From: Escherichia coli
GTDB lineage: Bacteria; Pseudomonadota; Gammaproteobacteria; Enterobacterales; Enterobacteriaceae
Assembly: GCF_051903065.1 (NCBI RefSeq)
Contig: NZ_CP178438.1
Length of the DNA stretch: 64,000 bases
Strand: one strand, 5' to 3'
Both the position numbers and the translations under genes were made by a program. The stretch's first letter is position 1. Each line of letters begins with the position of its first letter. This document shows positions 4,209-61,418 of the stretch, piece by piece. Under the pieces are notes generated by a model. It was given only the letters and a program-made list of their open reading frames with translations, searched no databases and was not told where the DNA came from.

Positions 4209-4229
4209 GGTATCCTCAATGGGCCTGAA

Positions 4230-4811
4230 TTAGTCTTTATCGATTCGGCTGGCTACCGCGCCCTGCTGGTTGCGATATTTCGCATCTTCACGGCGGTTGT
4301 AAGGTCGCGCCGCCGGGCCGGAAAGCGGCTCAAAGCTCAGCGCACCAATTAACATGCCCGGACGTAGCGCCAGCGGCAGCTTACCGGAGTTGTAGAACTC
4401 CAGCACAATGCAGCCAGACCAGCCCGGATCGATGCGGTGCGCGGTGACGTGCACCATCAGCCCCAGACGCGCCAGTGAGGAACGCCCGTCCAGCCAGCCC
4501 ACCAGATCGGCTGGCAGCGTCACCGACTCCAGCGTCACCGCCAGCGCCAGCTCTCCTGGGTGAAGATAGAACGCCTCGCTTTCATCGAGAACGATCTCAT
4601 CGCTCATCACGCGGTCAAGCGCGGCGCTCACTTCATCTTTGGGACCGCTCAGATCGATAAACGCTGCCGTGTGACCACGGAAGGTACGAAATTTATTGCC
4701 CAGGCGCACATCCACCGTCGCGCCGTTAATACGCTCCACTGGCGGACGTGGGTTGATCGACAAACGGCCTTCATCAAGCCAGGCTTCAATATCTCGGTCA
4801 CACAGACGCAT
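4230..4811 (-). CDS. dcd: dCTP deaminase, 193 aa
   Basis: 193-aa ORF; dCTP deaminase family; conserved dcd-udk pairing. Confidence 0.9.
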
Positions 4812-4902
4812 GGCATTTTCTCCTTTCGCGCATCACTCCCTTAACGCCAATTACGTCAAGGGCATACCAGGTTATCACTGAACGGTACACAATTTATCAA
4901 GC

Positions 4903-5544
4903 TTATTCAAAGAACTGACTTATTTTCGCTTTCAATATATCGATCGCGATGCGGTTTTTCCCGCCGCGCGGCACGATAATGTCCGCATATTGTTTAGAAG
5001 GCTCAATGAATTGCAGGAACATCGGGCGCACGGTTTTTTGATATTGCGCCATCACGGAATCCATTGAACGCCCACGCTCGTTAACGTCACGCTTGATGCG
5101 GCGCATCAGGCAGATATCCAGCGGGGTATCAACGAAAATGGAGAAGTTAAGTTCGTCACGCAAACGCGCATCCGTCAGCAACAAAATGCCTTCGAGAATG
5201 ATGACCTTCTTCGGCTCAACCGTCACCGTTTCTTTCATACGCGTATGTTCAACATAGCTGTAAACCGGCAGGTCAATTGCCGAGCCGCGTTTCAACGCTT
5301 GTAAATGCTCAAGCAGCAGGCTGTGATCCATCGCGCTGGGATGGTCGTAGTTGGTCTTAACGCGTTCTTCCATCGACAGATGGCTTTGATCTTTGTAATA
5401 GCAGTCTTCGGGAATTACGCCGATGTGTTCATCACCGACTTGCTCACGTAATTCACGATAAAGGGTACTGGCAATAAGACTCTTGCCGGAAGCCGATGCG
5501 CCAGCGATACCGATAATGACGCACTGATGAGACTGATCAGTCAT
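4903..5544 (-). CDS. udk: Uridine/cytidine kinase, 213 aa
   Basis: P-loop [11 protein letters not shown]; start taken at MTDQSHQ (track ORF extends 21 codons further upstream to 5607). Confidence 0.9.
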
Positions 5545-5861
5545 ATATTTAGCGACCTGATTAACCTGGATGTTAGGAAGGGGGCGACGAAGCGCCAAAC
5601 GCGGCAATTATAGGGATTTCATCCGCCTGATACCAGTCGAATAGCGTTGCCGCGCGCTCAGAGTTAATTGTTGACAAAGAATTCCTGGTGGCAAATTACG
5701 TTGATTAGTTTTATGTAAGGTAAAAAATGTTATACGCAGTTGCGCAAATTATCCGCCTTTACGTCACTTTATGAGCAATTCGCATATAAAATGTAAAACT
5801 TTTGTACTAGCATAAACACAGAAACGAATACTGGCGACCTGGCCTTGCGGATAAAGCGGTA

Positions 5862-15170: not shown

Positions 15171-15310
15171 TGAGGGTTAGGGAAAGGTTTCCCCCTCCCC
15201 CTGGTGTTCTTAGTAAGCCTGGAAGCTAATCACTAAGAGTATCACCAGTATGATGACGTGCTTCATCATAACCCTTTCCTTATTTAAGGCCCCTTCCTCG
15301 GGAGGGGCTT
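15171..15310 (+). ncRNA. sibA: SibA antitoxin sRNA, antisense to ibsA (ends approximate)
   Basis: Sigma70 promoter TTGACA (15136-15141), 17-nt spacer, TAATTT (15159-15164). Transcript fully overlaps ibsA on the opposite strand and ends at a GC hairpin plus T-rich tract near 15285-15310. Confidence 0.6.
15210..15269 (-). CDS. ibsA: Type I toxin IbsA, 19-aa hydrophobic peptide MMKHVIILVILLVISFQAY
   Basis: Hand-translated minus-strand ORF; too short for the ORF track. Matches the Ibs toxin family. Confidence 0.75.
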   Translation of the reverse strand: MMKHVIILVILLVISFQAY

Positions 15311-15504
15311 TCCCGTTTCAGCATCCCGCTGAAATCGTCGGCTTACCTCCTTTCGCCATGCATGCAGTCTATCGCTGACTTGCGGATAAAATAGTTTCCA
15401 GTGTGATTATTGCGTAACGTCTCGCAAAGAATATTTGCTGGCAGGATCGCAGACTGCAAAGCCTGCAGATTGACAATCTGACCGTGAAGGCATACTTTCA
15501 GGAG

Positions 15505-15640
15505 TGAGGGTTGAGCGGGGTTTCCCCCGCCCTGGTAGTCTTAGTAAGCTGGCCAGCTAATGACTAAGAGCACCACGATGATGAGTAGCTTCATCATGAC
15601 CCTTTTCTTATTAAAGGATGACAAAATAATACAAATCACT
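15505..15640 (+). ncRNA. sibB: SibB antitoxin sRNA, antisense to ibsB (ends approximate)
   Basis: Second copy of the Sib repeat. Promoter TTGACA (15470-15475), 17-nt spacer, TACTTT (15493-15498). Overlaps ibsB. Confidence 0.55.
15541..15597 (-). CDS. ibsB: Type I toxin IbsB, 18-aa hydrophobic peptide MMKLLIIVVLLVISWPAY
   Basis: Hand-translated minus-strand ORF in the second Sib/Ibs repeat unit. Confidence 0.75.
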   Translation of the reverse strand: MMKLLIIVVLLVISWPAY

Positions 15641-15763
15641 TAAAAATCATCGCATTACACGAATTTGCGGTTAAATAATAGACTACAAAGTGCGACAAAA
15701 CGCAACATATGCAGTCACTATGAATCAACTACTTAGATAGTACTAGTGACCTGTAACAGAGCA

Positions 15764-15806
15764 TTAGCGCAAGGTGATTTTTTGTCCTCTTGCGCTAATT
15801 TTTTGT
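15764..15806 (+). terminator. Candidate rho-independent terminator
   Basis: 10-bp inverted repeat TTAGCGCAAG / CTTGCGCTAA (15764-15773 / 15789-15798) followed by TTTTTTG. The 15-nt loop is long, so confidence is moderate. Confidence 0.4.
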
Positions 15807-15961
15807 CATCAAACATGTCGTTCTCCAGAGAAGCATAAAGCCTTGCAATCAAGTGCAAAGCTTTGTGTACCAGAGTTTTTCCTCATCAACTACCACAAGT
15901 ATCGATCGATTGAGACTTGGATGATAGACTTCATGCCTTTCAGAACTCATTGATTACATAA

Positions 15962-16324
15962 ATGTTAAAGCTATTTGCAAAGTACACCTCGATTGGTGTG
16001 CTGAACACACTTATACACTGGGTGGTTTTTGGTGTATGTATCTATGCCGCGCATACCAATCAGGCTCTGGCAAACTTCTCAGGTTTCGTTGTGGCTGTGA
16101 GCTTTAGCTTCTTCGCGAATGCAAAATTCACATTCAAAGCATCGACTACAACGATGCGCTACATGTTATATGTCGGGTTCATGGGAACACTGAGTGCTAC
16201 TGTTGGATGGGCTGCTGATAAGTGCTCGCTTCCTCCAATTATCACTCTTATCACCTTCTCCGCCATCAGCCTGGTGTGCGGTTTCGTCTATTCAAAGTTC
16301 ATTGTCTTTAGGGATGCGAAATGA
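15962..16324 (+). CDS. gtrA: GtrA-family bactoprenol-glucose flippase, 120 aa
   Basis: 120-aa four-helix membrane protein; near-identical to phage P22/SfV-type GtrA as I recall it ([20 protein letters not shown]...). Confidence 0.9.
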
Positions 16325-17241
16325 AAATATCTCTGATTGTTCCTGTCTTCAATGAAGAAGATGCGATACCAATTTTCTATAAAACGGTACGTGAATTCGA
16401 AGAGTTGAAGCCTTATGACGTCGAAATTGTATTCATAAATGACGGAAGCAAAGACGCCACGGAATCAATTATTAACGTTCTGGCTGTTTCAGATCCGCTA
16501 GTTGTTCCGCTGTCATTTACACGAAACTTTGGTAAAGAACCAGCATTGTTTGCAGGGTTAGACCATGCAACGGGCGATGCTGTTATTCCTATTGATGTTG
16601 ACCTGCAAGACCCGATTGAGGTTATTCCTCATCTGATTGAAAAGTGGCAGGCAGGTGCCGATATGGTGCTGGCAAAACGTTCAGATCGTTCAACTGATGG
16701 AAGATTAAAACGGAAAACCGCTGAGTGGTTCTATAAGCTTCACAATAAAATAAGCAATCCAAAGATTGAAGAGAATGTCGGCGATTTCCGCCTGATGTCT
16801 CGAGAGGTGGTAGAAAATATCAAACTACTGCCAGAGCGTAACCTGTTTATGAAAGGCGTTTTATCTTGGGTTGGCGGTAAGACGGATGTTGTTGAATACA
16901 TCCGTGCTGAACGCGTTGCCGGAAGCACAAAATTCAATGGCTGGAAGCTATGGAACCTGGCGCTTGAGGGAATTACAAGTTTCTCGACCTTCCCCTTACG
17001 CGTGTGGACTTACATCGGCCTACTTGTTGCGGGACTCTCGTTCCTTTACGGGGTGTGGATGATTTTCGACACATTGGTGTTCGGTAATGCTGTCCGCGGA
17101 TATCCTTCTATTCTTGTATCTATTCTCTTTTTAGGTGGCATTCAGTTAATTGGTATTGGGGTGCTGGGAGAATACATCGGCAGAATTTACGTAGAAGTTA
17201 AAAATCGTCCTAGATATGTACTTAAAAAAATAAAAGGTTAG
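16321..17241 (+). CDS. gtrB: GtrB bactoprenol glucosyltransferase (GT2 family), 306 aa
   Basis: GT2 motifs (DGSKDAT, DVDLQD) and C-terminal TM helices; 4-nt overlap with gtrA. Confidence 0.9.
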
Positions 17242-17246
17242 AGAAT

Positions 17247-18623
17247 ATGCGCATTTCAAAAAATGAAAAATACCTTTCATTGATTATGATAGCATTTTAC
17301 TTGCCATTTTTATTATCTGATTTACCTTTTAGGGACGATCTAAGCAGGACTTATTGGGGTTTTGTTGGGTTGTCTCAATTAGGTAGACCATTGGCAGACA
17401 TTGTTTATAGTTTGGTTGGATTTGGCTATGAGGGTGTTAACCTCAGCCCTATGCCTAAAATTATAGCGCTATTAATAATATTATCGTCTGCGATATTTTC
17501 ATACAGAACGCTATTCAACTCAATAGGAGCAACCGGGTTACTCTCTTTATCTATTTTCTTTGCAAATCCATTTATTATTCAAAATTTTGCATATCAGTAC
17601 GACTGTTTTCCAATGGCTTTATCTATTTTATTGGCGACATTATCTGTATTATATAGACCAAGATCAAGCTATTTTTATTTTCTTAGCGCATCATTTTTAT
17701 TAACTAGCGCAATATCACTTTATCAAGCATCTATATTTATTGCGGCATCTTTATATTTATGTAAGATCACTATTTATTTCGTTAACGATAGAAATCGCAG
17801 AGATGTTTTTATAGAATGCATGCTTACTCTTTTGTCTTCTTTTTTCTCTATTGCATGTTACATGGTGATTTTACTTTTTGTAGAAAATGGCGTGTCAAAA
17901 CGAGCTAGCATTACAGGGCCAAGTGGCGTTATTAGCAATATCGAGTTCCTTTTGGATAGGTTAAATAGCCTTTACCACTCGGTTTATATTTTTTTTATTA
18001 TTTTGTCATTAGTATTAATATTCTCTCTCTTGAGGATTTTTATCCTAAAAAGATATATCAATTTATGCGTGATATTACTAATACTTGTTGCGCTGCTAGT
18101 CTCTTCCCTACTCCCATCTGTCATCCTTAAGGAAGGGTTCGCCGGACCAAGAGTTTTAATGTCTATTTGTTCGGTATTTATATTTATATCTATCATTGCA
18201 ACCGGAAAAGAAAAATACGTATACGCCATGGTGTTATCTGTTTTAATGATGCATTCCATGTCTATTTCATACGCATTTTCAGGTGACATTAAGGCACAAT
18301 ACGATAGATACTCGATGATATCATCTCTTGTTTATAAAGATATTGATAATTACGTGTCGTCAAATACAGCAAAAATATACATTTCTTGCAAATCAACCCC
18401 ATCACAAAGAGAGTACGTTTTCTATAAATTCAACAATCACATAGCATGGCTCAACCCAGAAGAGGCTTGGGCTATCAGGTTTTTCATAAGAAATAATGGC
18501 GAGAGCAGGGTGGTGCACTCATGGGATGAATGCTTTGATATAAATGGAGGTAAGATCGTTAAAGAAAATGCATTTTATAAAATGGTTGAAAATAAAAATT
18601 CTTACTATTTCATAATGAAATAA
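17247..18623 (+). CDS. gtrC: GtrC-type serotype-specific O-antigen glucosyltransferase (polytopic membrane protein), 458 aa
   Basis: Third gene of a gtr operon; highly hydrophobic and AT-rich with strong codon bias relative to its neighbours, typical of horizontally acquired gtrC-type genes. Target specificity cannot be called from sequence. Confidence 0.7.
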   Translation: MRISKNEKYLSLIMIAFYLPFLLSDLPFRDDLSRTYWGFVGLSQLGRPLADIVYSLVGFGYEGVNLSPMPKIIALLIILSSAIFSYRTLFNSIGATGLLSLSIFFANPFIIQNFAYQYDCFPMALSILLATLSVLYRPRSSYFYFLSASFLLTSAISLYQASIFIAASLYLCKITIYFVNDRNRRDVFIECMLTLLSSFFSIACYMVILLFVENGVSKRASITGPSGVISNIEFLLDRLNSLYHSVYIFFIILSLVLIFSLLRIFILKRYINLCVILLILVALLVSSLLPSVILKEGFAGPRVLMSICSVFIFISIIATGKEKYVYAMVLSVLMMHSMSISYAFSGDIKAQYDRYSMISSLVYKDIDNYVSSNTAKIYISCKSTPSQREYVFYKFNNHIAWLNPEEAWAIRFFIRNNGESRVVHSWDECFDINGGKIVKENAFYKMVENKNSYYFIMK

Positions 18624-18630
18624 ATATAGG

Positions 18631-18662
18631 CGGGGGGGGGGGTAACAATCCCCCGTCTTTTT
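18631..18662 (+). terminator. Rho-independent terminator after gtrC
   Basis: CGGGGGGGGGGG-TAACAAT-CCCCCG hairpin (G11 run pairing with C5) followed by TCTTTTTT. Confidence 0.6.
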
Positions 18663-18849
18663 TGCTACGGCAAGTGATTAATCGCAACAATTGATTATTA
18701 TTTATAACAAATGCGTCATCTACCGCTATTCGGGTGACATTTTCATTCCTTATCTAAAATACAATTAAATAATTAACAAATAATTAAACGAATTGCATGA
18801 AAAATACATTACCGAAAAGTTAGAATAGTGTGCGATTGAAAGTTAATAA

Positions 18850-21381
18850 CTATATAACGGATAGCGTTCTTATGTCATTGCTAGCTGGTGATGCCATAAC
18901 TATCTGTGTTACGTTAGCGCCAGACACCGTATACGTCAGAATTACGTTACCAACGGCTCCTATATTAAAGTTTTGTTTAGCTCCTGAGGTACCTATAGCT
19001 CTGGCATTCGTTAAAGTATACGTGCTTCCCGCAGTGAATCCTGTAGCAATTACAAATTGTTGACCAACTTTAAAAGGAACTGTCATTGTTGCGGATGTTG
19101 ACTCGACAGTAGCAAACGGCAGGCCAGGCTGTTTAACCCCCGTCACATCCCAGAACTCACAGTTACGCACCAATGCTCGACCAATTAAATCGCGAGTTAC
19201 AGGGAATGTTGTCTGGTCCTGTGATAAGAATGCTCCAACAATTTGCACGTTATCGAGCGTAATATCGTGTACTGTGGCCCCATCTATAGGACTTAACGTT
19301 GGTGATGCACTCCATAATTTACCACCCTTCATTTTGATACTTACAGGCCCGTTAGGGTCTGTCCCTCTAAAAGCGCGAATACTCTCAAATTTGCAATCTG
19401 TAAATTCATAGCTGCCGCGTTGGTTAGTTTCGAACAATGTATACGCCTCACCTGACACTCCGTGTCTTACATCACTGGCAACAACGCGCGGATTATGGCG
19501 GAATGATGCAGACGTGACAGAGAAAAATGGCGCGCAGACATCGTTAATAAGAATGTCTGTTGTATAACGCCCTGTAACAGCGCTCTCAGAGTCACTCATA
19601 TCCGAATATAGCGCTTTGAAGCGGGAGAAGTCTATGTTTAGACCTATTCCTGCACTTTTTGGTAATTGTCCAAAATCAAGCCCGTCAATAACAATTTTCT
19701 TAGGGAAATAAAGGGTGTTATCTCGAGCTACAGTTATTAATGTACCCGGATAAGTCAAGACGAAACCTGGATACATTTTAACATCTTTCAAGGTAACATT
19801 ATTGAATAACGTGGGGCTTATAGGCGACCCGCTACTAGGCCCTTGCCCAGCAGTAACAGCTGCGTTTATGATACCATTTCCGGGTGCGCCGCTGCGCAGG
19901 CCAGTTAACTTAATATTCTCCATGTATAAATCACCATCGAAGCCCCCCCCCAGCGTCAGAGCGAGTCGAAATAATATTACCAGGCTTATATGGTGAAGCA
20001 TTAAATATTGAATTGGTTACATACAAATCCCCGATACCAGAAGCGACGACACCATAAGTCCCAATATTACAGTCATTTATCTTTAAGTAGTTTTGGAAAG
20101 GTCTGTGGAAATCAATTCGACTAAGATCGCATCTTTCAAACCTTATATTGGCGCAATTATTGCTGCCTGTTGCCCCCCAGCCTTTACCATTTGCCGTTGC
20201 GTTTTTGATAGTGACATCCATAGAGTTAGATAGGGTTAAGGCGTATGCGTAGCTATCAACACCATCTATTAAGGCGTTTGCTATGGCTGGCGTGTATAAA
20301 CCATCAACTGTAACATCATAGCTTTCGTTAATTTCTATCCTGATATCATTAAAGTTTTGCGTTATCGGTCTGTTAATAAATGTCGTATTAACCAAGCGAA
20401 CTCGTGATGCTTGATTAATATAAATAATTCGATAATTCTTTGTAAGACTTTCGTCTATAGTCAATCCCTTAAGGTCTGCACATCTTTGCGTATTTTAAGT
20501 GCTTTAATTGATGTTGCGTTAGTTCCTAGGGCGTACTTAAGCGGGTTTTCAATGTATCCACGGTTATATACCCTGTTGAAATCTACGCGAGTTTGATTAA
20601 CGCCATCGAAAATAAACATAGGTTGAGATGTCGATAACTGAATGAAGCAACCGTCAAGGTCGGTATTAGAAGCCAAACCATCAAGATAGTTGCTACCTAT
20701 GTCGCGAGAGCCACTGGTGGACGTATTAACTCCATTAACTGGAGCCGAACCAGAACCGTATGTAACAGGGGCGACAGGCTGGCTAATAACAATTTGCCCT
20801 TTCCATGTAGCCGATGGTTTAAGCACACACCCGGTTAAATCCACATTTAAACTTTTAATATCAAGATAAGTATCACCATCTAGTAGAAAAGTTCCGTCAG
20901 ATTGCCTAACGTCTAAATTATTTGAATAAGCATAGTTCAGTGCCTTAGCTATGGCGGGAGCGTCATTTGTTACTCCATCACCAATAGCGCCAAACTCCTT
21001 CAACGTTACCCAGTATTTTACTTTCTCCAAGCTCTTTTGATATTGATCTGGGTCGTACTTCAGCACATTAGGAAAATAGAACTGCTGCGCACCATATGCA
21101 TCATAAACAGCCATAGAGTGGCCTTGCACAGTTACGAACTTGGCAATCTGTCCGTTATATACCGGATATCCAGCAGCGTTAATGATGATTGGTTGTGAAA
21201 CAGGAACGTGAGAACCATCCTCATTCTCCACATAAATCTGAATCTGGTTTTCAGGATTTACCGGGTCAGTGTCAATTTTTCCTATATAAATTTTGCCATT
21301 GGCAACCGCTTTAAAAGAACGTGCCATAGTGAAGAGTTGCGAAGGCATGCTTACCACAACATTTGCGGTGATATCTGTCAT
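18850..21381 (-). pseudogene. P22-like phage tailspike gene broken into three reading-frame segments (306 + 177 + 383 aa)
   Basis: The N-terminal ~120 aa ([34 protein letters not shown]...VLKYDPDQY) is the conserved P22-family tailspike head-binding domain. Downstream segments are beta-helix-like. Frames switch near 20461-20464 and at a G9 run (C9 on + strand, 19943-19951). Confidence 0.7.
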
Positions 21382-52075: not shown

Positions 52076-52876
52076 TCACCACCAGGCGTGGAAGTGGTGA
52101 ACCGGACCAATACCGTGACCAACTTCCAGCGTGTCGGCCTGTGCTAACGCCGATGAAAGCCAGCTTTTTGCCTCCTGTACGGTGTCAGCCCAGTTTGTAT
52201 GGCGCGGGCGTAGTGCAGCCAACGCCGCAGAGAGCGTACAACCAGTGCCGTGGGTGTTTTTGGTCATAATGCGCGGTGCAGTAAATCGTTGTTCTCCCTC
52301 ACGAGTAAACAGCCAGTCCGGGCTTTGCTCATCATCCAGATGACCACCTTTCATTAGCACTGCGCCACAGCCCATCGCCAACAGCGATCGCCCTTGTTCC
52401 AGCATTTCCTGTTCGGTGCGCACGTGTGGCGCGTCGAGCAAGGCGGCTGCTTCGGGCAAGTTTGGCGTTATTAATGAAACCTGTGGCAATAATCGACTGC
52501 GTAGCGTGGCAACTGCCGAAGGTGAAAGCAGTGGGTCGCCGCTTTTTGCCAGCATAACGGTGTCGAGTACCACGTTTTGGATCTGATAACGTTGCAACCG
52601 TTCTGCCACCGCTTCAACAATATCGGTTTCCGCCAACATACCGATTTTAGTGGTATCGATTCGCACATCGCTGAACACCGAATCGAGCTGGGCGGCGACA
52701 AAATCAGGCTCAATGCGATACACCGACTGTACGCCACGGGTATTTTGCGCCACCAGTGCAGTAATAACTGAGCAACCATAAGCGCCAAGTGCCGAGAAGG
52801 TTTTAAGATCGGCCTGAATCCCCGCACCACCACTCGGATCAGTACCGGCAATCGTCAGAGCGTTAATTCGTTTCAT
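52076..52876 (-). CDS. thiD: Hydroxymethylpyrimidine/phosphomethylpyrimidine kinase, 266 aa
   Basis: PfkB-type kinase with GTGC motif; overlaps the thiM stop. Confidence 0.9.
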
Positions 52877-53661
52877 GCCTGCACCTCCTGCGTCAATTGC
52901 CAGAGCGCATCAAGGAAATGTGGAACAAAACTGCCTGGCCCCTCGCTTCTGGCGACTGCGCGTTCTCCGGCTTGTTTCATCCAGTGACAGGCAGATGCGA
53001 CATTTTCCAGCATATCGCCTGGTAACGCACAGCAGGCAGCGATAACTGCCGATAATGCACAGCCAGTTCCTACCACTTTGGCCATTAACGGATCGCCGCC
53101 GTGAATGCCAACGGTGCGACGACCATCGGTAACATAATCCACCTCGCCAGTGACCACGACGATTGCGCCAGTTTCCCGTGCCAGTGTTTGTGCAGCGGGT
53201 ATCGCGTTAGCTGCGGCGTCAGTGGTATCCACTCCCCGTCCACAATTAGCAACGCCAGCTAATGCCATGATTTCCGAAGCATTACCACGTATCGCTGCCG
53301 GTTTAAAAGATAAAAGTTCATGACAAAAATGGCGGCGATAATCGAGCGCACCAATCGCTACTGGATCAAGCGTCCAGGGGGTTTGAGAGCTTTTTGCTTG
53401 CTCAACGGCGGCACGCATCGCCTGTGCGCGTGGCTGCGTCAGCGTGCCAACGTTAATCAACAAGGCACTGGCGATAGCCGCAAACTGACTGGCCTCTTCG
53501 GTTTCGATAACCATCGCTGGCGATGCACCGAGCGCCAGCAAGGTATTGGCAGTAAAGGTTTGCACCACATCGTTGGTCATGCAGTGTACAAGAGGGGAAT
53601 GTTGGTGAAAAAGGTGTAACGTGTGCGCAGATTGCGCGGAACTCAGCAGGTCGACTTGCAT
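52873..53661 (-). CDS. thiM: Hydroxyethylthiazole kinase, 262 aa
   Basis: 262-aa ORF directly downstream of a TPP riboswitch. Confidence 0.9.
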
Positions 53662-53800
53662 AGTTTGCTCCTGCCATAACGTGAAGAAGCAATGACCTGG
53701 TGGTCCGTGACTTCCCTACGCTGGCATTATCCAGATCAGGTGATACGGGTATTTCTCAGCCTTCACGCAGAAGGGCACCCCGAGTCGTTTGGTTGCGATG
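53662..53800 (-). promoter_or_regulatory. TPP (thi-box) riboswitch in the thiM leader
   Basis: Minus-strand sequence ...GGGGTGCCCTTCTGCGTGAAGGCTGAGAAATACCCGTATCACCTGATCTGGATAATGCCAGCGTAGGGAAGTCACGGACCACCAGGTCATTGC... matches the thiM TPP aptamer as I recall it. Confidence 0.85.
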
Positions 53801-55660: not shown

Positions 55661-55690
55661 AAAGCCCCCTCATCATGAGGGGGAAATGCA
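55661..55690 (-). terminator. Rho-independent terminator between convergent rcnB and yehA (clearest for yehA)
   Basis: GCCCCCTCA-TCA-TGAGGGGG hairpin; on the minus strand it is followed by CTTTTTTTAG. Confidence 0.55.
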
Positions 55691-55739: not shown

Positions 55740-56774
55740 TTAGTCGTATTTCACGTTGATTAGTGCGGTTGCCTCCAGTGCGCCAGATTTAACTTTGTTT
55801 GTATCGTAGACGTAGTAACTGGCTGTTATCGGAATTGAAACCGTTGTATCTGTAAGTTTTAACTTTGCCGCAATTTCTTTTAAATTTGTGTATCCTTTAC
55901 TGCTGTTAGTGATATTTAAAAGTGTGACTGGCGAACCATTACTTTCAAGAATAAATCCTACGCCATTATCTTCCGCACCTTTCAGTATTGTGTTGCTGTT
56001 GGTTAACAAGTCAGAACTTGATAAATACACCTGCATTTTCCGTGATGTTTGATTTTGTTGACCTAATAAATTTTTACAACGCAGAATAATATCCCCTTTT
56101 TTACTATTTACTGTTGCTTTGTTACCTGTGGCTGGTAATTGTGAAACGGGAATACTCTCTAAAGTAATTAATAAATCGTCCGGTTTGCAGGTTGTGGTTA
56201 TCGGGTTGTATGACAATGTCAGATTAAAGGAATAGACACCTGCATTTTGTGCCAATGCATTTCTGTAGCTATTTACACATGCATCCCATGACTTGCCACC
56301 TAATAAACACAGTAGAAATTGTACTGCGGCACTCCCGCGTGTCGATGATGAAGCACTGGATAATGTCGCAACACCATTAATCATCACTGAACCGCCGCCC
56401 CCCGCAGAAACATTCACTTTTGCATTACTGGCCGCAGGTGTCACCGTTACCGAATAACCACTGGTGAAACTGGTCTGATTATTTGACAACGTGATGTTAT
56501 TTTTATTGGTCCATTCAAAATGTAAATTTAATTTAATAGTATCGTTATAAAGTCCAACAATAATATCCGACGGGCTCATAGGGGTGATAGTATTTGTACT
56601 TACGCATGACGAATCATTAAAATTATGCTCATAGGTCGCCATTTGTGTTTGAGTAAGTGCAAAATCCCCCTGAACAACCAAATTGTGCTGAACAGATAAC
56701 TCACTATAACATGCTGCATAGCTCACTGGCATAACCATCATCATTAATATAAATAGCATTATGCGAATTTTCAT
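55740..56774 (-). CDS. yehA: Chaperone-usher fimbrial tip adhesin-like protein YehA, 344 aa
   Basis: 344-aa secreted protein, last gene of the yehDCBA cluster. Confidence 0.8.
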   Translation of the reverse strand: MKIRIMLFILMMMVMPVSYAACYSELSVQHNLVVQGDFALTQTQMATYEHNFNDSSCVSTNTITPMSPSDIIVGLYNDTIKLNLHFEWTNKNNITLSNNQTSFTSGYSVTVTPAASNAKVNVSAGGGGSVMINGVATLSSASSSTRGSAAVQFLLCLLGGKSWDACVNSYRNALAQNAGVYSFNLTLSYNPITTTCKPDDLLITLESIPVSQLPATGNKATVNSKKGDIILRCKNLLGQQNQTSRKMQVYLSSSDLLTNSNTILKGAEDNGVGFILESNGSPVTLLNITNSSKGYTNLKEIAAKLKLTDTTVSIPITASYYVYDTNKVKSGALEATALINVKYD

Positions 56775-56789
56775 AGAACCACCTGACTA

Positions 56790-59270
56790 TTACTGGCAAA
56801 TATAATTTCTACTTTCATCAATCTCTTTACCGAAGGTGATTGTGCATGAAAGTCCTTGTTGCTTATTAATTGCCACATTAACCGATGGCGGTACTTCATT
56901 GGTGCGAATAAATAACTGACTTCCCTGGCCGACAACGCCAATATTATGACCGTGGATATCATTGACTTCATAACCAAACGTTAATGGTTGCCCATCCGCT
57001 CTTAACGCTTTTATAAACCAGGGCTTGCGCTGATCGGTATCAAAATTAACCAGTACAACCGCGCCGCGATAAGGGGCGGCAATTTTCCGGTTGCCACGTA
57101 ATTCTGCTTCGCTATCGCTTTGCGACACATCCAGCATCAGGTGATTTTCCCGATAAGGTGTCATTCCGTCGTATACCACCACTCCATTACGGTTTGTTGT
57201 GCGATATTTTTGCCCATTGACATAGGCATCTTTAATTCCTGGCGCATTCATCACAGCAAACGTTTCGGAAAGACGGTTCGCCAGATTAACGCCACCCGAC
57301 CAGGCGACAATGCCCCCTGAAACACTGGCTCCAGCCTGTCGATAAGTACTCGACTGACTATAACTGCCATTCACTGTTGCCACCGGCGCGTTCCAGGTTA
57401 AATTCGCTCCAGCTGTCGTTTCATTTCCCTGATGTTGATGACTCAGGTTGACACCATAATTGAACTGTTCCCGACTCCCTACTGTTCCTGATAATCCCGT
57501 ATTATTTGAGGCAAACCCCTGATCATCAAACGTCGTTGAGTTAGACATATATATTTGCCGACGAGGCGTCGAAACGTCATCACCCCAATCAAAGGGAATC
57601 GATATAAAAATATTAAAACGTTTCTCTTCATGATGATTCTCGTCATAAGCCTGGCTTGCCGCGAGGGTATAGCTTATCCGTCGCAGGTTGTTGGAATAAC
57701 TCAACTGATAATCCTTACTACTGCCGCTACGCCCCCAGTAATCTCGCCATAACGTACTTAATGACACAGAACCCCAACCTTCTGGCAATGACTGGCTCAT
57801 ATTGGCGGAAAAGCTATTTTTGCGACCAAAATCATTCTGGTAATAATCGGCAATGTCATAGACATCGTTTTCATTACGGCGATAATTATCTTTATTGTTT
57901 GCCCAAACGTGATCATTAAATGTCCGGTAATCACGCGACGAATAACGCCAGGCCGCCAGACCAAAACGCGTCGACGTTTGGCTCACAAATTTGTTGTAGG
58001 CAATTTGATAACTTTGCCCGTCAAACACATCGCCGTTGTCTTGTTTACTATGCGACTTCGTGGCATCGACGGAAATGGCACCAATGCGTGTATTCCAGCC
58101 AGTCCCCAAAGTGAACGCGTAATAATTATTCGCGACCATCGAGCCACCATACAGCGTCAATAAGTTATTAAAACCACACTGATAACCCGCCTGGACAAAA
58201 TCACTTTGTTTGCTCGCCCCTTCAATATGGCTACGACCCGCCGCAAAATCATATTTCGACACGCCGGGTTGCAGCATATTTGGCACGGCTGCATAAGGCA
58301 CCAGATAGGTGGTTACCGAACCGTCCGCCTCTTTCACGCTGACATCAAGATCTGCTCCACCACCGGCCAACTGCAAATCTGTAATCGCAAACGGGCCAGG
58401 AGGAACCTCTTTCTGATAAACCACAAAACCATTCTGTTCAATAGTTATCAGCGCGTTACTCTGAGCAATCCCCTGCACCCGTGGCGTAAAATTTTGTTTC
58501 GAGTTAGGCAACATCTGCATATCACGAAACAACCGCACACCTCTGAAGCGAACAGAATCAAAAATATCGCTTGATGTGTACATATCACCCACGCGAAGCG
58601 TGCCGAGAAGTTGGGCAAATCCACGTTCCAGATACAGGGTATTGCTTTTCCACACCCCTGGATTGTTATTTGTTTTACTGAAACTGGCATCAGAATGCAG
58701 TTGCCACCCCAGTAAATTTAACCCGCTGTTAAAACGTACATATGTACTCTTACTATTACCCGACGCTTTATAGTCACTGTAATACTGACTCACATAATAA
58801 GAGGTATAAAACGCATTAATACCCCGCTCCCAGTTTTCCGGTGGAACATAGCCACTTTCCAGTTCTTCCACCCAGGCCTGCGGGACACTGAAATCGAGAC
58901 GAAAGACCCCGATATCCCAGGTATAGCTCCCACCCTGAACAAGTTGCTCAAATGTTAAACATTGCTTTCCACTGGCGAAGTTATCGGTGTTAATGCCTAA
59001 CCGCTTGATAATTTCCCTTGATAAACAAGTTTCTTGCGGGTTGTCTTTAACAATGATCTCATATTTCCCGCGCCATTTCTTATTGACATAAATATCGATG
59101 TCATACTGCCCCGGTAAGGGTTGATTATCATCAAGACGAATATTTGCAACCTGCTGGTCTTTCATTCCACCTATCATAAAATGGGTATCAAAGGTTTCTT
59201 CAGCTGCATAAGCTTCAATGCCGAGCAATAACGCTACGATTGCTGATGCAAGTGGGGTCATTCTCAACAT
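56790..59270 (-). CDS. yehB: Fimbrial outer-membrane usher YehB, ~826 aa
   Basis: Usher-family beta-barrel; start taken at MLRMTPLASA (track ORF 5 codons longer). Confidence 0.85.
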   Translation of the reverse strand: MLRMTPLASAIVALLLGIEAYAAEETFDTHFMIGGMKDQQVANIRLDDNQPLPGQYDIDIYVNKKWRGKYEIIVKDNPQETCLSREIIKRLGINTDNFASGKQCLTFEQLVQGGSYTWDIGVFRLDFSVPQAWVEELESGYVPPENWERGINAFYTSYYVSQYYSDYKASGNSKSTYVRFNSGLNLLGWQLHSDASFSKTNNNPGVWKSNTLYLERGFAQLLGTLRVGDMYTSSDIFDSVRFRGVRLFRDMQMLPNSKQNFTPRVQGIAQSNALITIEQNGFVVYQKEVPPGPFAITDLQLAGGGADLDVSVKEADGSVTTYLVPYAAVPNMLQPGVSKYDFAAGRSHIEGASKQSDFVQAGYQCGFNNLLTLYGGSMVANNYYAFTLGTGWNTRIGAISVDATKSHSKQDNGDVFDGQSYQIAYNKFVSQTSTRFGLAAWRYSSRDYRTFNDHVWANNKDNYRRNENDVYDIADYYQNDFGRKNSFSANMSQSLPEGWGSVSLSTLWRDYWGRSGSSKDYQLSYSNNLRRISYTLAASQAYDENHHEEKRFNIFISIPFDWGDDVSTPRRQIYMSNSTTFDDQGFASNNTGLSGTVGSREQFNYGVNLSHQHQGNETTAGANLTWNAPVATVNGSYSQSSTYRQAGASVSGGIVAWSGGVNLANRLSETFAVMNAPGIKDAYVNGQKYRTTNRNGVVVYDGMTPYRENHLMLDVSQSDSEAELRGNRKIAAPYRGAVVLVNFDTDQRKPWFIKALRADGQPLTFGYEVNDIHGHNIGVVGQGSQLFIRTNEVPPSVNVAINKQQGLSCTITFGKEIDESRNYICQ

Positions 59271-59285
59271 AGGCAGCTCCTGCAA

Positions 59286-59960
59286 TTAAATTTTGTCACT
59301 AATATAATTGCCGTGGTCATCGATAATGGTCAGATACCAGTTATTTGCATTATTACTTTTGACATTAACACTCTGACTTTCTAAGGGGGCAATCATAATA
59401 GTTTCATAATTGACTTTAACATTATTAGCTTTGACATCCGAAATCGTCACCCAATTAGCTGAGTCATTTTTTATCACCAATCCATTGCCACTGCGATTTA
59501 CCAGTAACTTTTTAAAGGTCGCTTTATTTACCGGAGCAATACCCGCCGGGCGGTAAAACAATTTGATTCTGTTTTGCATCGCAAACTTCAGTGCATTCTT
59601 ACCTTCTTGTTCTGGACTATTTGGTGGAATATCCAGAACATTCAGATAAAAAATGCTTTCTTTATTAGTGGGCAGTTTATTCGGCATAATTTTGATTTTT
59701 ACTTGCTGCCCGGAATTTGCCCCTATTTTTGCCACTGGTGGCGTTAACATGAAAGGAACCTGAATTTTTTCTGGTGGTAACGACGTATCGCCATCATCAA
59801 TCCACGCCTGCAGCAGCGAAGAACGGTTTCCCTGGTTCATCAACTGCACCATAACTTCTTTATTTTCTGCCGGGTAAATAATGCGCGTCCCGTAGATAAC
59901 AATTCCGGCATGTGCAGGAAGGACCATAGAAAAAATGAGTAAAGATAATAATCCTTTCAT
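59286..59960 (-). CDS. yehC: Fimbrial periplasmic chaperone YehC (PapD-like), 224 aa
   Basis: Signal peptide plus PapD-like fold; stop abuts the yehB start. Confidence 0.85.
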   Translation of the reverse strand: MKGLLSLLIFSMVLPAHAGIVIYGTRIIYPAENKEVMVQLMNQGNRSSLLQAWIDDGDTSLPPEKIQVPFMLTPPVAKIGANSGQQVKIKIMPNKLPTNKESIFYLNVLDIPPNSPEQEGKNALKFAMQNRIKLFYRPAGIAPVNKATFKKLLVNRSGNGLVIKNDSANWVTISDVKANNVKVNYETIMIAPLESQSVNVKSNNANNWYLTIIDDHGNYISDKI

Positions 59961-60040
59961 CTTAATGCCTCTTAAATTAAAAAGCCGCCATGGGGATAGC
60001 GGCCATGTTTATTACCTGGAGAAACTTGCAATTTTATTTA

Positions 60041-60583
60041 TTAATCCTGCGCCACACGCATAACCAGAGAAGATAACACATCACCTGATTGCACTGAGTT
60101 ATCTGTCAGTTTCAGGTATTTTGCTTTAAACGGAATAGCATATTGACCTTCCGCTGTTTTATAACTCTCAATATTAAAAGGTGCAGAAACATCCAGGACA
60201 TCGCTGTTATCACCTAAATAGAGATAGTAACCCACAGTATCGTTGCTACTGGCTATCGCCTTATCGTTACCAGTTATTTTATCGTTGGTAATCAACGAGA
60301 GTTTTACACCAGCAACTTCTTTCGGGCAGCTAATTTTTAACATGCTACTGGTTACACCGACTGCATCATCATAGGTAGAATATTTAGCTTTACCTTCAAA
60401 GACAGTGGTTGGTACAGTTGGCATATTAATACTTACTGAATCACCACCCGCTTCGAATTTACACGGAGATTCTGCAATATTTCCTTTAATGGTTAATGTT
60501 CCGGTATCAACGTCTGCAGCAAATACTCCAGCGCTCATAAAAAAAGAAGAAAAGACAGCGACAGCAATAATTGAACGTTTCAT
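60041..60583 (-). CDS. yehD: Major fimbrial subunit YehD, 180 aa
   Basis: Signal peptide and pilin-like C-terminal strand; preceded by a very AT-rich region. Confidence 0.8.
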   Translation of the reverse strand: MKRSIIAVAVFSSFFMSAGVFAADVDTGTLTIKGNIAESPCKFEAGGDSVSINMPTVPTTVFEGKAKYSTYDDAVGVTSSMLKISCPKEVAGVKLSLITNDKITGNDKAIASSNDTVGYYLYLGDNSDVLDVSAPFNIESYKTAEGQYAIPFKAKYLKLTDNSVQSGDVLSSLVMRVAQD

Positions 60584-60804
60584 AATATGTTCCTTAATAA
60601 AATTTATTTTTGGTTGTTAAGAGTCTGTATCTCTTGGAAACAAATTTCTCACATCAAAAAAGTTGCCGCAATGTAAACATATTGTTTTATTGATTTAAAA
60701 CAAATTAACCATTGCAATATAAATACAACAAATACTTAAGAGTATTAAATATTTATCGTATCTATTAATTAATGTAGATTTATGTAAATGGTATTGTTGA
60801 TATC

Positions 60805-60848
60805 AATAAAAAAGCCGAAATCATTTATATAAATGATTTCGGCTTTCT
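60805..60848 (-). terminator. Rho-independent terminator downstream of yehE
   Basis: Near-perfect 14-bp palindrome GCCGAAATCATTTA / TAAATGATTTCGGC; on the minus strand it is followed by TTTTTTATT. Confidence 0.6.
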
Positions 60849-60875
60849 AAATGCAATTAAAATCAGGTTGCCAAA

Positions 60876-61157
60876 TTAATCGTAGCGATTTAACACGATT
60901 CGACGTTTGCTATCACTACCTGCAACAACCACTTCTGTCGTTACACCTTTGACGGGCGAAGAAACCTGATGACGGGTATCGACATTATACGTTAACTGAC
61001 CACAATGCTGTTGAGGTTGACTATTAACCATAGCCATACTGCATGTTGGGGGACTGATCCTGCCATTAATCGTTAATGTGGCAGTCTCTGAAGAGAACGC
61101 GGGAGAAGCCAATCCATAGGCAAGAAAAATAATTCCTGACAGCCAATACTTATTCAT
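60876..61157 (-). CDS. yehE: Small secreted protein YehE, 93 aa
   Basis: 93-aa ORF with signal peptide upstream of the yeh fimbrial genes. Confidence 0.7.
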   Translation of the reverse strand: MNKYWLSGIIFLAYGLASPAFSSETATLTINGRISPPTCSMAMVNSQPQQHCGQLTYNVDTRHQVSSPVKGVTTEVVVAGSDSKRRIVLNRYD

Positions 61158-61346
61158 TGAACGTTATCCCTGTAGTAAAGGTTATGCCTGGATAGAATGA
61201 GTGCATAACAAACTATAGCTGTACATCCACTACACAGCACGAAGGATGATAATGAAGCATTGCCTGTACGATCAATCGACTTTGTAGAGTTTCGGACGAA
61301 GGTCCGCAGAATATTCGCAGTATTAAATAAGTGTTCATTAATGCGG

Positions 61347-61389
61347 CAAAAACAAATACACCGCATCAATGTAACATCTCTGCGGTGTA
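61347..61389 (-). terminator. Candidate rho-independent terminator downstream of apbC/mrp
   Basis: TACACCGCA / TGCGGTGTA stem (61357-61365 / 61381-61389); on the minus strand it is followed by TTTGTTTTT. Confidence 0.45.
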
Positions 61390-61418
61390 TGAAGAATAAC
61401 CAGAATGGTTAATAGGCG

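Follow-up and report, generated by a model that had tools for sequence, protein, structure and literature searches.

A conserved, covarying hairpin as the predicted terminator between yehE and yehDCBA in the Yeh fimbrial locus of Escherichia coli

Chaperone-usher operons carry an intercistronic hairpin after the gene of the major subunit, as the pap operon does downstream of papA. The Yeh fimbriae of E. coli K-12 and O157, which are encoded by yehDCBA and correspond to Stc (stcABCD) of Salmonella, are cryptic, H-NS-repressed and core-associated (PMC5797941, PMC3559732, PMC7098969). Their usher belongs to clade gamma4 (PMC7098969), and Wurpel et al. described the locus as ancestral (PMC3559732). 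The H-NS regulon has been also reported to include yehDCBA, and SlyA, an antagonist of H-NS, raises its expression 3.6-fold (PMC5797941); the same paper cites Korea et al. for the repression by H-NS and the cryptic status. The spacer between yehD and yehE is listed among 78 'promoter islands' (Panyukov and Ozoline 2013), and it is described as bound by H-NS in the Kahramanoglou and Oshima data sets and transcriptionally suppressed (PMC3661553).

Positions 55740-61157 (minus strand) of the window, by which we mean the whole 64,000-nucleotide stretch of E. coli DNA analysed here, comprise the Yeh chaperone-usher fimbrial locus, yehA-yehB-yehC-yehD-yehE (Table 1). A preliminary description of this DNA had named it a yeh fimbrial cluster, and the five minus-strand ORFs, their Pfam matches and the RefSeq annotation of the same DNA (yehA-E, flanked by rcnB and apbC) all agree with this. 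The locus contains a full-domain usher, a PapD-like chaperone, a major pilin and an adhesin of two domains, the C-terminal one being a pilin domain. By annotation it occupies the fixed chromosomal position between rcnB and apbC/metG, and the apbC side is kept in all 13 orthologous loci of our comparison set, which covers Escherichia species, Citrobacter and Salmonella arizonae (alignment counts below are over 14 loci). Gene content, gene order and chromosomal position are the same as those of the Yeh fimbriae of K-12 and O157 and of Stc. When compared with K-12, the spacer and terminator match except for a few bases, and the terminator itself is identical. Two differences were observed in the genes: yehB is intact in this strain, whereas O55:H7 relatives carry an internal stop, and yehC starts here at the conserved ATG (224 aa) rather than at the upstream ATG annotated in K-12 (239 aa). 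The mechanical ORF of yehB begins at an upstream TTG and extends to 59285 (ORF 56790-59285), and the length in Table 1 is that of RefSeq. This arrangement is ordinary and agrees with published annotation, and the Yeh locus, its silencing by H-NS and the yehDCBA boundary were already known in substance. What we add is the covariation in three genera that argues for the yehE hairpin as a selected RNA terminator, and the finding that no segment of the locus is more conserved than the part of the yehD control region to which ArcA binds. The significance is modest and lies mainly in careful annotation, which may aid the search for the conditions that naturally induce a fimbria that is cryptic but retained universally.

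Table 1. Features of the Yeh locus and its surroundings, in window coordinates
Feature	Position	Strand	Description and source
Hairpin + U7 after yehA	55665-55683	-	GC-rich, between convergent yehA and rcnB; terminator scan; fold centroid -14.4 kcal/mol
yehA	55740-56774	-	Two-domain fimbrial adhesin, 344 aa; Pfam Fimbrial (PF00419) at residues 184-344, E = 3e-23; RefSeq
yehB	56790-59270	-	Outer-membrane usher, annotated 826 aa; Usher PF00577 E = 2e-195, PapC_N/PapC_C (PF13954, PF13953)
yehC	59286-59960	-	PapD-like periplasmic chaperone, 224 aa; PapD_N + PapD_C (PF00345, PF02753)
yehD-yehC hairpin + U5	59983-60004	-	GC-rich, GCCGCUAU/AUGGCGGC; terminator scan; fold -13.3 kcal/mol
yehD	60041-60583	-	Major fimbrial subunit, 180 aa; Pfam Fimbrial (PF00419)
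yehD regulatory region	60584-60748	-	Conserved; putative promoter, 5' leader, Shine-Dalgarno UAAGGAA
ArcA-P site	60660-60702	.	Reported box of direct repeats, lying in the best-conserved block (TGTTTTAAATCAATAAAACAAnnTGTTTACATTGCGGCAACTT); supplement of Park et al. 2013 (PMC3798270)
Variable spacer part	60749-60807	.	Very AT-rich, poorly conserved; between terminator and yehD regulatory region, within the H-NS-bound island
yehE intrinsic terminator (predicted)	60808-60846	-	13-16-bp stem, 4-nt loop, then U6
yehE	60876-61157	-	Secreted DUF2574 protein, 93 aa; Pfam DUF2574 E = 4e-52
yehE promoter region	61139-61288	-	RNA polymerase-sigmaS ChIP-seq peak assigned to yehE (PMC4447067), mapped to the window
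apbC (mrp) terminator hairpin + U-rich tail	61346-61390	-	Inverted repeat; separates apbC from yehE

The cluster has 41.3% GC, compared with 50.6% on its left and 50.8% on its right, which confirms the earlier statement that it is AT-rich relative to its flanks. The GC3 values of the yeh genes are 0.30-0.44, while those of apbC and rcnA are 0.62 and 0.57, respectively, and the window holds one further stretch (about 15.2-21 kb) that is AT-rich to the same degree. An AT-rich intergenic region of ~290 bp had been noted between yehD and yehE, and it measures 292 bp (60584-60875) with 23.6% GC, which is the lowest value for its length in the window; 0.05% of 292-bp segments are as low. Other genera show the same pattern, with 41-46% GC in the locus against 53-56% in apbC. 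The locus was found in 5226-5283 of 5426 E. coli genomes, its neighbours are identical in Escherichia species, Citrobacter and Salmonella arizonae, and yehE invariably lies between apbC and yehD (13/13 loci). Since the locus is syntenic and AT-rich in all three genera, its AT-richness is no sign of recent acquisition. The YehD protein diverges fast: in most of the Citrobacter and Salmonella loci, only 32-39% of its amino acids are identical.

Between yehE and yehD, where the preliminary description had seen a near-perfect 14-bp palindrome, we found a perfect 36-nt inverted repeat (60811-60846), confirmed by an opposite-strand self-match and an inverted-repeat search. On the minus strand, the 5' arm GCCGAAATCATTT (60843-60831) and the 3' arm AAATGATTTCGGC (60826-60814) enclose the loop ATAT (60830-60827), and three additional A-U pairs lengthen the stem. 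Directly 3' of the stem lies UUUUUUAUU (60813-60805), which consists of the U-tract UUUUUU at 60813-60808 followed by AUU. The hairpin folds with -22.3 kcal/mol (z = -7.6), and none of 200 shuffles was equally stable. The site was absent from the output of a simple terminator scan of the window. The hairpin resembles canonical Rho-independent terminators in its GC-based stem, closed at the base by the G-C pairs of GCCG/CGGC, in its immediate U-run and in the short distance of its base from the yehE stop codon (29-32 nt). It also shares with them an A-run 5' of the stem, which extends the pairing in Escherichia. On the contrary, its stem is unusually long, the upper two thirds of the stem are AU-rich (5 G-C among 13 core pairs), and the sequence of its apex does not vary between genera. 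Nearly all 14 loci share the upper stem AUCAUU/AAUGAU and the loop-proximal AUG unchanged, unlike the covarying lower stem, and such a near-invariant upper stem and loop are more than a purely structural terminator requires. Unlike the pap-type hairpin, the yehE hairpin precedes the gene of the major subunit and parts a small gene without fimbrial annotation from the operon.

The hairpin was seen in 13/13 orthologous loci, being degenerate in one of them (L007), and a U-run of four to eight follows the stem in most loci, with interruptions in L007, L011 and L013. When stem pairing was counted over the 14 loci, 97.3% of cells were paired and 27 cells were altered on both sides. Five of the 13 pairs changed on both sides, and the covariation score was reached by none of 500 shuffles. 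As a control, partners slid by 1-3 columns paired in only 37-46% of cells. The lower stem GCCGAA/UUCGGC is replaced by GCCCCC/GGGGGC, GCACUC/GAGUGC, GCCUCU/AGAGGC, CCAUAU/AUAUGG or GCCCGC/GCGGGC in other loci; the lower arms are altered yet complementary, and therefore the constraint is structural and not sequence-specific. In addition, U-G at columns 22/27 (10 sequences) and G-U at columns 10/39 pair only in the yehE-sense RNA. Based on the compensatory covariation in three genera and these sense-strand-only G-U pairs, sequence comparison identifies the yehE hairpin as a selected, evolutionarily conserved and predicted intrinsic terminator, which would separate yehE from yehDCBA.

The segment next to yehD (60584-60748) shows 73-77% identity between E. 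coli and Citrobacter/Salmonella, while the same comparison gives lower values for yehD (56-69%), for yehE (63-67%) and for the DNA upstream of the latter (51-56%). No other segment of the locus is as well conserved as these yehD-proximal 165 nt, which include the ArcA-bound part. Base-pair covariation was absent from this region in the orthologue alignment, and therefore the constraint acts on the DNA sequence. Park et al. (2013) reported an ArcA ChIP-seq peak in one of two replicates, an ArcA box at U00096.2 2190321-2190363 and a 5.4-fold increase of yehDCBA in an arcA mutant, and their supplement marks 'no TSS' for yehD (PMC3798270). The K-12 box maps to the window with 42/43 bases identical, and the site is near-invariant across genera. 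The 'promoter island' maps to 60568-60924, and although the spacer is a listed member of that class, its proximal half is strongly conserved and carries the mapped ArcA site, indicating that the spacer is more than degenerate AT-rich DNA. Promoter-like hexamers are numerous in the AT-rich spacer, at chance frequency. Finally, the proposal that this is a cryptic operon silenced by H-NS is supported by the AT-richness measured here together with the K-12 literature on H-NS binding and the H-NS regulon (PMC3661553, PMC5797941).

It had been also proposed that yehE is transcribed apart from yehDCBA, and this is supported by the conserved hairpin, by the sigmaS peak at yehE and by regulon reports that give yehDCBA or yehD/yehC but leave out yehE. 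The RNA polymerase-sigmaS peak covers the yehE start and the upstream region (PMC4447067), and a -10 element of yehE is predicted there (TATAGT at 61217-61212, preceded by GC), which aligns with CATAAT in Citrobacter and Salmonella. The SlyA table gives yehDCBA and yehE is unmentioned in the text (PMC5797941), yehD and yehC were induced in the BolA study, and yehE is absent from 13/13 supplement files of the ArcA study (Park et al. 2013, PMC3798270). Upstream of yehE, the apbC hairpin folds with -17.6 kcal/mol (z = -2.8) and is kept in all loci.

Putting the present gene identities, base composition and covarying hairpin beside the published ChIP and expression data, we think it very probable that this is an ancestral, core Yeh (Stc) gamma4 locus with three successive minus-strand transcription units, each terminated by a hairpin. 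Transcription of apbC would stop at its own terminator. The second unit would be yehE alone, from a promoter ~60 nt upstream of the ATG that is occupied by RNA polymerase-sigmaS at stationary-phase entry, and it would end at 60808-60846. The third unit, yehDCBA, would be controlled separately from the final ~165 bp of the spacer, where we infer the yehD promoter. H-NS on the AT-rich spacer would hold yehDCBA silent, ArcA-P on the direct repeats would repress it anaerobically, and SlyA and BolA would raise its expression. The terminator, whose efficiency we also infer, would keep transcription of yehE out of the silent fimbrial genes. A weaker second hairpin, downstream of yehD, is probably what makes the major subunit more abundant than chaperone, usher and adhesin.

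Here, we need to consider two points against this reading. The supplements of the Term-seq study by Adams et al. (2021) contain no yehE entry. In addition, a Ptet promoter was placed at the yehE ATG in a construct that reached across the terminator as far as yehA, and Yeh fimbriae were made only when it was induced (PMC7098969). Since the Ptet::yehE-yehA plasmid still gave Yeh fimbriae, the terminator is probably not absolute and some read-through is likely; either a useful share of the transcripts extends past the hairpin, or silencing is relieved by transcription from upstream. The hairpin might accordingly be a leaky or conditional terminator within a single yehEDCBA operon with regulated read-through, its invariant apex being a protein or RNA recognition element. 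The induction-dependent fimbriae, the name 'yehEDCBA' used in one recent study, the yehE-yehD synteny in 13/13 loci and the contrast between invariant apex and covarying lower stem are consistent with it. However, a strong synthetic plasmid promoter can yield enough read-through even past a good terminator, and a GC-based hairpin beside a U-run is the canonical constitutive form, though the run is interrupted in three loci. Moreover, no alternative anti-terminator fold was found in the 86-nt context, a separate, highly conserved control region that includes an ArcA site precedes yehD, and published regulon tables give yehDCBA without yehE. We regard a single operon as unlikely. It is still more doubtful that the apex (AUCAUU..AUGAAUGAU) is read by a factor that tunes read-through or transcript stability and so couples yehE to yehDCBA, with YehE as a pilin-derived mini-subunit acting on Yeh assembly; in that joint reading, YehE might for example cap fimbrial growth or occupy the chaperone.

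That the palindrome works chiefly as DNA, whether as the operator of a dimeric regulator, a cruciform or an H-NS nucleation feature, appears very improbable. A perfect 36-bp palindrome within an H-NS-bound 'promoter island', with the central ATCATT-N6-AATGAT invariant in sequence, would suit such a role, but the lower arms swap to unrelated sequences and stay complementary, and G-U wobble is tolerated on the sense strand only. Furthermore, the yehE-sense U-run is present in most loci while the opposite-side A-run is lost in Citrobacter and Salmonella, and the position past the stop codon fits a terminator. Finally, AT-rich composition and the flagging of the spacer by island-prediction tools (table columns A and B, PMC3661553) would suit a copy of a dispersed repeat, either of the REP/BIME kind or from a miniature mobile element, in a recently acquired island, to which we give almost no credence, as the spacer is single-copy with one locus per E. 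coli genome, the apparent 'second place' in each genome is a self-match of the palindrome with the opposite strand where many copies would be expected, and the locus is near-universal in E. coli, shares its neighbours across genera and is 'ancestral' per Wurpel et al. (PMC3559732).

Under the preferred reading of three hairpin-terminated units, the hairpin between yehA and rcnB is likely the end of the yehDCBA transcript. The hairpin between yehD and yehC has the same position as the pap-type hairpin after papA; a GC-rich hairpin is found there in 14/14 loci with a variable U-tract, and within the operon it probably terminates transcription in part or stabilises the mRNA.

The YehE family is tiny, with 33 clusters among 1.8 billion representative proteins. 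YehE was rejected as a full pilin, as it contains no complete Fimbrial domain (about 150 aa) and its sole Pfam match is DUF2574. The AlphaFold model of YehE has a mean pLDDT of 51 and is unusable. In an hhalign comparison, only YehE residues 1-43 align to YehD 1-45 (probability 96.5%), which corresponds to the signal peptide and a donor-strand-like segment. Both ends of YehE look pilin-like: the N-terminus is donor-strand-like (TATLTINGRISPPTC), and the C-terminal ...IVLNRYD resembles the YehA end ...INVKYD.

The minus-strand genes between apbC and rcnB (table below) were identified as the Yeh chaperone-usher locus of E. coli based on their domains, the RefSeq annotation and the E. coli matches. 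RefSeq names them yehA, yehB, yehC, yehD and yehE, with rcnB on one flank and apbC (mrp) and metG on the other, and a megablast search recovered the 7-kb stretch at a coverage of at least 80% in 5,226 of 5,426 complete E. coli genomes. The preliminary description had reported an AT-rich fimbrial cluster, consistent with H-NS silencing and interrupted by a terminator; the observation was confirmed and its interpretation is supported, and the biology of the locus as described here is in substance already known. For comparison, 13 orthologous loci, one per species, were found with a YehE profile in Escherichia (E. albertii, E. whittamii and cryptic clades), Citrobacter (C. koseri, C. youngae and others) and Salmonella arizonae, and all of them share the gene order apbC-yehE-yehD-yehC-yehB. 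While yehB is intact in the window, in O55:H7 strains it carries an internal stop and is a pseudogene (L001, the O55:H7 comparison locus, 3291-5771). Two genomes match the window at 100% identity, and in these the locus is broken by IS903B and IS1A insertions.

Genes of the yeh locus and their positions in the window
Feature	Position	Strand	Basis
Two-domain fimbrial adhesin (yehA)	55740-56774	minus	ORF + Pfam
Usher with PapC_N, Usher and PapC_C (yehB)	56790-59285	minus	ORF + Pfam
PapD-like chaperone (yehC)	59286-59960	minus	ORF + Pfam
Fimbrial major subunit (yehD)	60041-60583	minus	ORF + Pfam
DUF2574 protein, 93 aa (yehE)	60876-61157	minus	ORF + Pfam

The cluster is AT-rich as described, with 41.3% GC compared with 50.6% and 50.8% in the flanks, and GC3 ranges from 0.30 to 0.44 across the yeh genes compared with 0.62 in apbC. 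The yehD-yehE spacer (60584-60875, 292 bp) contains 23.6% GC, a value as low being reached in only 0.05% of windows of the same length. Low GC is shared by the orthologous clusters of all genera (41-46% compared with 53-56% for apbC), which lie at an unchanged chromosomal position, and Wurpel et al. 2013 (PMC3559732) place Yeh among the core-associated fimbriae, ancestral to both Escherichia and Salmonella, with the same locus in Citrobacter. These observations indicate that the low GC is a maintained trait of an old locus rather than a sign of recent transfer. When we searched the whole window for the H-NS 10-mer motif TCGATAAATT with at most two mismatches, 95 matches were obtained against 72 expected, which is not discriminating. 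A further AT-rich block, with GC as low as that of the yeh cluster, lies at about 15200-21000 (39.5-40% GC over 5.4 kb, 1-kb minima of 33% near 17250-18000) and contains several ORFs on both strands.

The palindrome after yehE had been described as a near-perfect 14-bp element; its position and context hold, and its extent was understated, since the inverted repeat at 60811-60846 is perfect over 36 nt. Its minus-strand sequence is AAAGCCGAAAUCAUUU-AUAU-AAAUGAUUUCGGCUUU, followed by UUUAUU. GCCG/CGGC closes the core stem of 13 bp, to which three A-U pairs are added, and the hairpin has a loop of 4 nt and is followed by a U6 run. Its fold has an energy of -22.3 kcal/mol (z = -7.6), and none of 200 shuffles was equally stable. 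The distance from the yehE stop codon to the stem base is 29-32 nt. The palindrome is single-copy, the apparent second place in each genome being the self-match on the opposite strand, and it is thus not a REP-like repeat. Rfam matches on it to plant miRNA and snoRNA models were sub-threshold chance matches. The sole real Rfam match lies outside the locus: a TPP riboswitch at 53696-53792 on the minus strand (RF00059, 71 bits, above the gathering threshold), an ordinary feature upstream of the ORF at 52873-53661. A consensus promoter/terminator scan listed the yehD-yehC and post-yehA hairpins and missed the yehE hairpin; since its sites also occurred at chance frequency, the scan is unfit for placing the yehD promoter.

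Comparison of the loci revealed that the yehE hairpin is under selection as RNA. First, a hairpin lies 3' of yehE in 13/13 orthologous loci, usually with a U-run, although it is degenerate in one of them (L007) and the U-run is interrupted in L007, L011 and L013. Second, the lower stem has repeatedly changed in sequence while its arms stayed complementary, as GCCGAA/UUCGGC, GCCUAA/UUAGGC, GCCCCC/GGGGGC and GCACUC/GAGUGC, and in the further variants GCCUCU/AGAGGC, CCAUAU/AUAUGG and GCCCGC/GCGGGC. In the alignment of 14 sequences, standard pairs occupy 97.3% of cells, 5 of the 13 pairs are changed on both sides (27 cells), and the covariation score was reached by none of 500 shuffles; when the partner was slid by 1-3 columns as a control, pairing fell to 37-46%. 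Third, the U-G at the top pair (10 sequences) and the G-U at the bottom pair (2 sequences) can pair only in yehE-sense RNA. Finally, the U-run stands on the yehE-sense side in most loci, and the 5' A-run is absent outside Escherichia. The compensatory stem changes, sense-only wobble pairs and one-sided U-run together indicate an intrinsic terminator that is under selection and acts in one direction. Neither the covarying lower stem nor the sense-only wobble pairs would be expected of a DNA operator or a chance palindrome. At the apex (60821-60836), the upper six pairs, AUCAUU/AAUGAU, and the AUG next to them hardly vary among the 14 loci of three genera, which is more sequence constraint than a purely structural hairpin needs; comparison by eye of the apex with the Fur, FNR, ArgR, IHF and CRP consensus sequences gave no convincing match. 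Small ORFs starting from the conserved hairpin-loop ATG or the leader ATGTTTACA were rejected on inspection of the aligned loci, as neither their length nor their presence is conserved.

The transcription evidence comes from K-12, whose spacer has the identical terminator. The yehD/yehE spacer belongs to a set of 78 'promoter islands', and the Kahramanoglou and Oshima data sets show H-NS bound to it (PMC3661553); the island maps to window 60568-60924. yehDCBA appears among the operons of the H-NS regulon, with a 3.6-fold induction by SlyA (PMC5797941), and Korea et al., as cited there, described it as cryptic and H-NS-repressed, yet functional. The proposed H-NS-silenced cryptic operon is supported in K-12 by this binding, listing and induction. 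In addition, BolA overproduction increases yehD and yehC (PMC4337573). An RNA polymerase-sigmaS ChIP-seq peak at 2190800-2190949 has been assigned to yehE (PMC4447067); it maps to window 61139-61288, covering the yehE start and 130 nt upstream. Within this peak, the -10-like GCTATAGT (TATAGT, 61217-61212), which is kept in Escherichia and has CATAAT as its aligned counterpart in other genera, is a putative yehE promoter element. yehE is mentioned neither in the supplement tables of the ArcA study (PMC3798270) nor in the text of the SlyA study (PMC5797941). apbC ends at a conserved hairpin terminator of its own (about 61346-61390) and, together with the K-12 evidence, this supports three transcription units, apbC, yehE and yehDCBA. 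That yehE is transcribed apart from yehDCBA, as had been suggested, thus finds support in the conserved covarying terminator, the sigmaS peak and the regulon listings of yehDCBA only.

There is also evidence that the insulation of yehDCBA from yehE transcription is not absolute. In O157 Sakai, PtetA::ECs2914-ECs2918 yielded Yeh fimbriae, which were visible only upon induction (PMC7098969). The primers used for cloning lie at the yehE ATG (61136-61157) and the yehA stop (55740-55765), so either the induced transcript must have crossed the terminator or upstream transcription must have relieved silencing of the native yehD promoter carried on the plasmid. One recent preprint calls the locus the 'yehEDCBA operon'. 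No Term-seq or long-read entry for the terminator site was found in the data consulted, the Term-seq supplements of Adams et al. 2021 among them, as is unsurprising for a poorly expressed locus, so that its strength is a prediction from structure.

In the alignment of the 14 loci, the distal part of the spacer is variable and AT-rich, and the yehD-proximal part of about 165 nt (60584-60748) is strikingly conserved. Between E. coli and Citrobacter/Salmonella, its identity is 73-77%, the highest of the whole locus, compared with 56-69% for yehD coding, 63-67% for yehE coding and 51-56% upstream of yehE. RNAalifold found no compensatory pair in this leader, which argues against a riboswitch or thermometer-like element and places the constraint on the primary (DNA) sequence. 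By eye, no convincing match to the CpxR, OmpR or CRP consensus was seen. An ArcA ChIP-seq peak, seen in one of two replicates, and an ArcA-P box of several repeats have been reported upstream of yehD (U00096.2 2190321-2190363, AAGTTGCCGCAATGTAAACACATTGTTTTATTGATTTAAAACA), with yehDCBA derepressed 5.4-fold in an arcA mutant and the yehD entry marked 'no TSS' (Park et al. 2013, PMC3798270). We mapped this site to window 60660-60702 with 42/43 bases identical, where it coincides with the invariant core of the conserved segment, and it would account for at least part of the conservation.

A GC-rich hairpin between yehD and yehC (59983-60004) is present in all 14 loci with differing sequences and varying U-tracts. 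Hairpins after the major-subunit gene of chaperone-usher operons are classically tied to differential expression of that subunit, and this one is probably a partial terminator or mRNA stabiliser setting subunit stoichiometry. In K-12, yehC is annotated as 239 aa with a start ATG inside this hairpin (L015, the K-12 locus, 5610-5646). In the corresponding stretch of the window (59961-60005), the loop carries CCCC compared with CCC in K-12, and the upstream yehC frame meets a stop, so the conserved start is the ATG further downstream, which follows AAGAGG and gives a protein of 224 aa. The longer K-12 reading seems to be an annotation artefact caused by a 1-nt deletion. The yehDCBA transcript probably ends at 55665-55683, between convergent yehA and rcnB, where the yehA-sense strand has the hairpin CCCCCUCAUGAUGAGGGGG and a U7 tract.

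The YehE family (DUF2574) is very small, forming 33 clusters among 1.8 billion representatives in a profile search that recovered no other family; low-complexity matches in giant repeat proteins were dismissed as compositional, since the same proteins match many unrelated Pfam families. Pfam gave no complete pilin domain in YehE, and the AlphaFold model (mean pLDDT 51) was unusable. Profile-profile alignment with hhalign matched YehE residues 1-43 to YehD 1-45 with a probability of 96.5%, comprising the signal peptide and TATLTINGRISPPTC of YehE against TGTLTIKGNIAESPC of YehD. The YehE N-terminus is donor-strand-like. The invariant YehE C-terminus, IVLNRYD, resembles the YehA end, INVKYD. YehE may be a pilin-derived mini-protein, and its gene lies between apbC and yehD in all loci.
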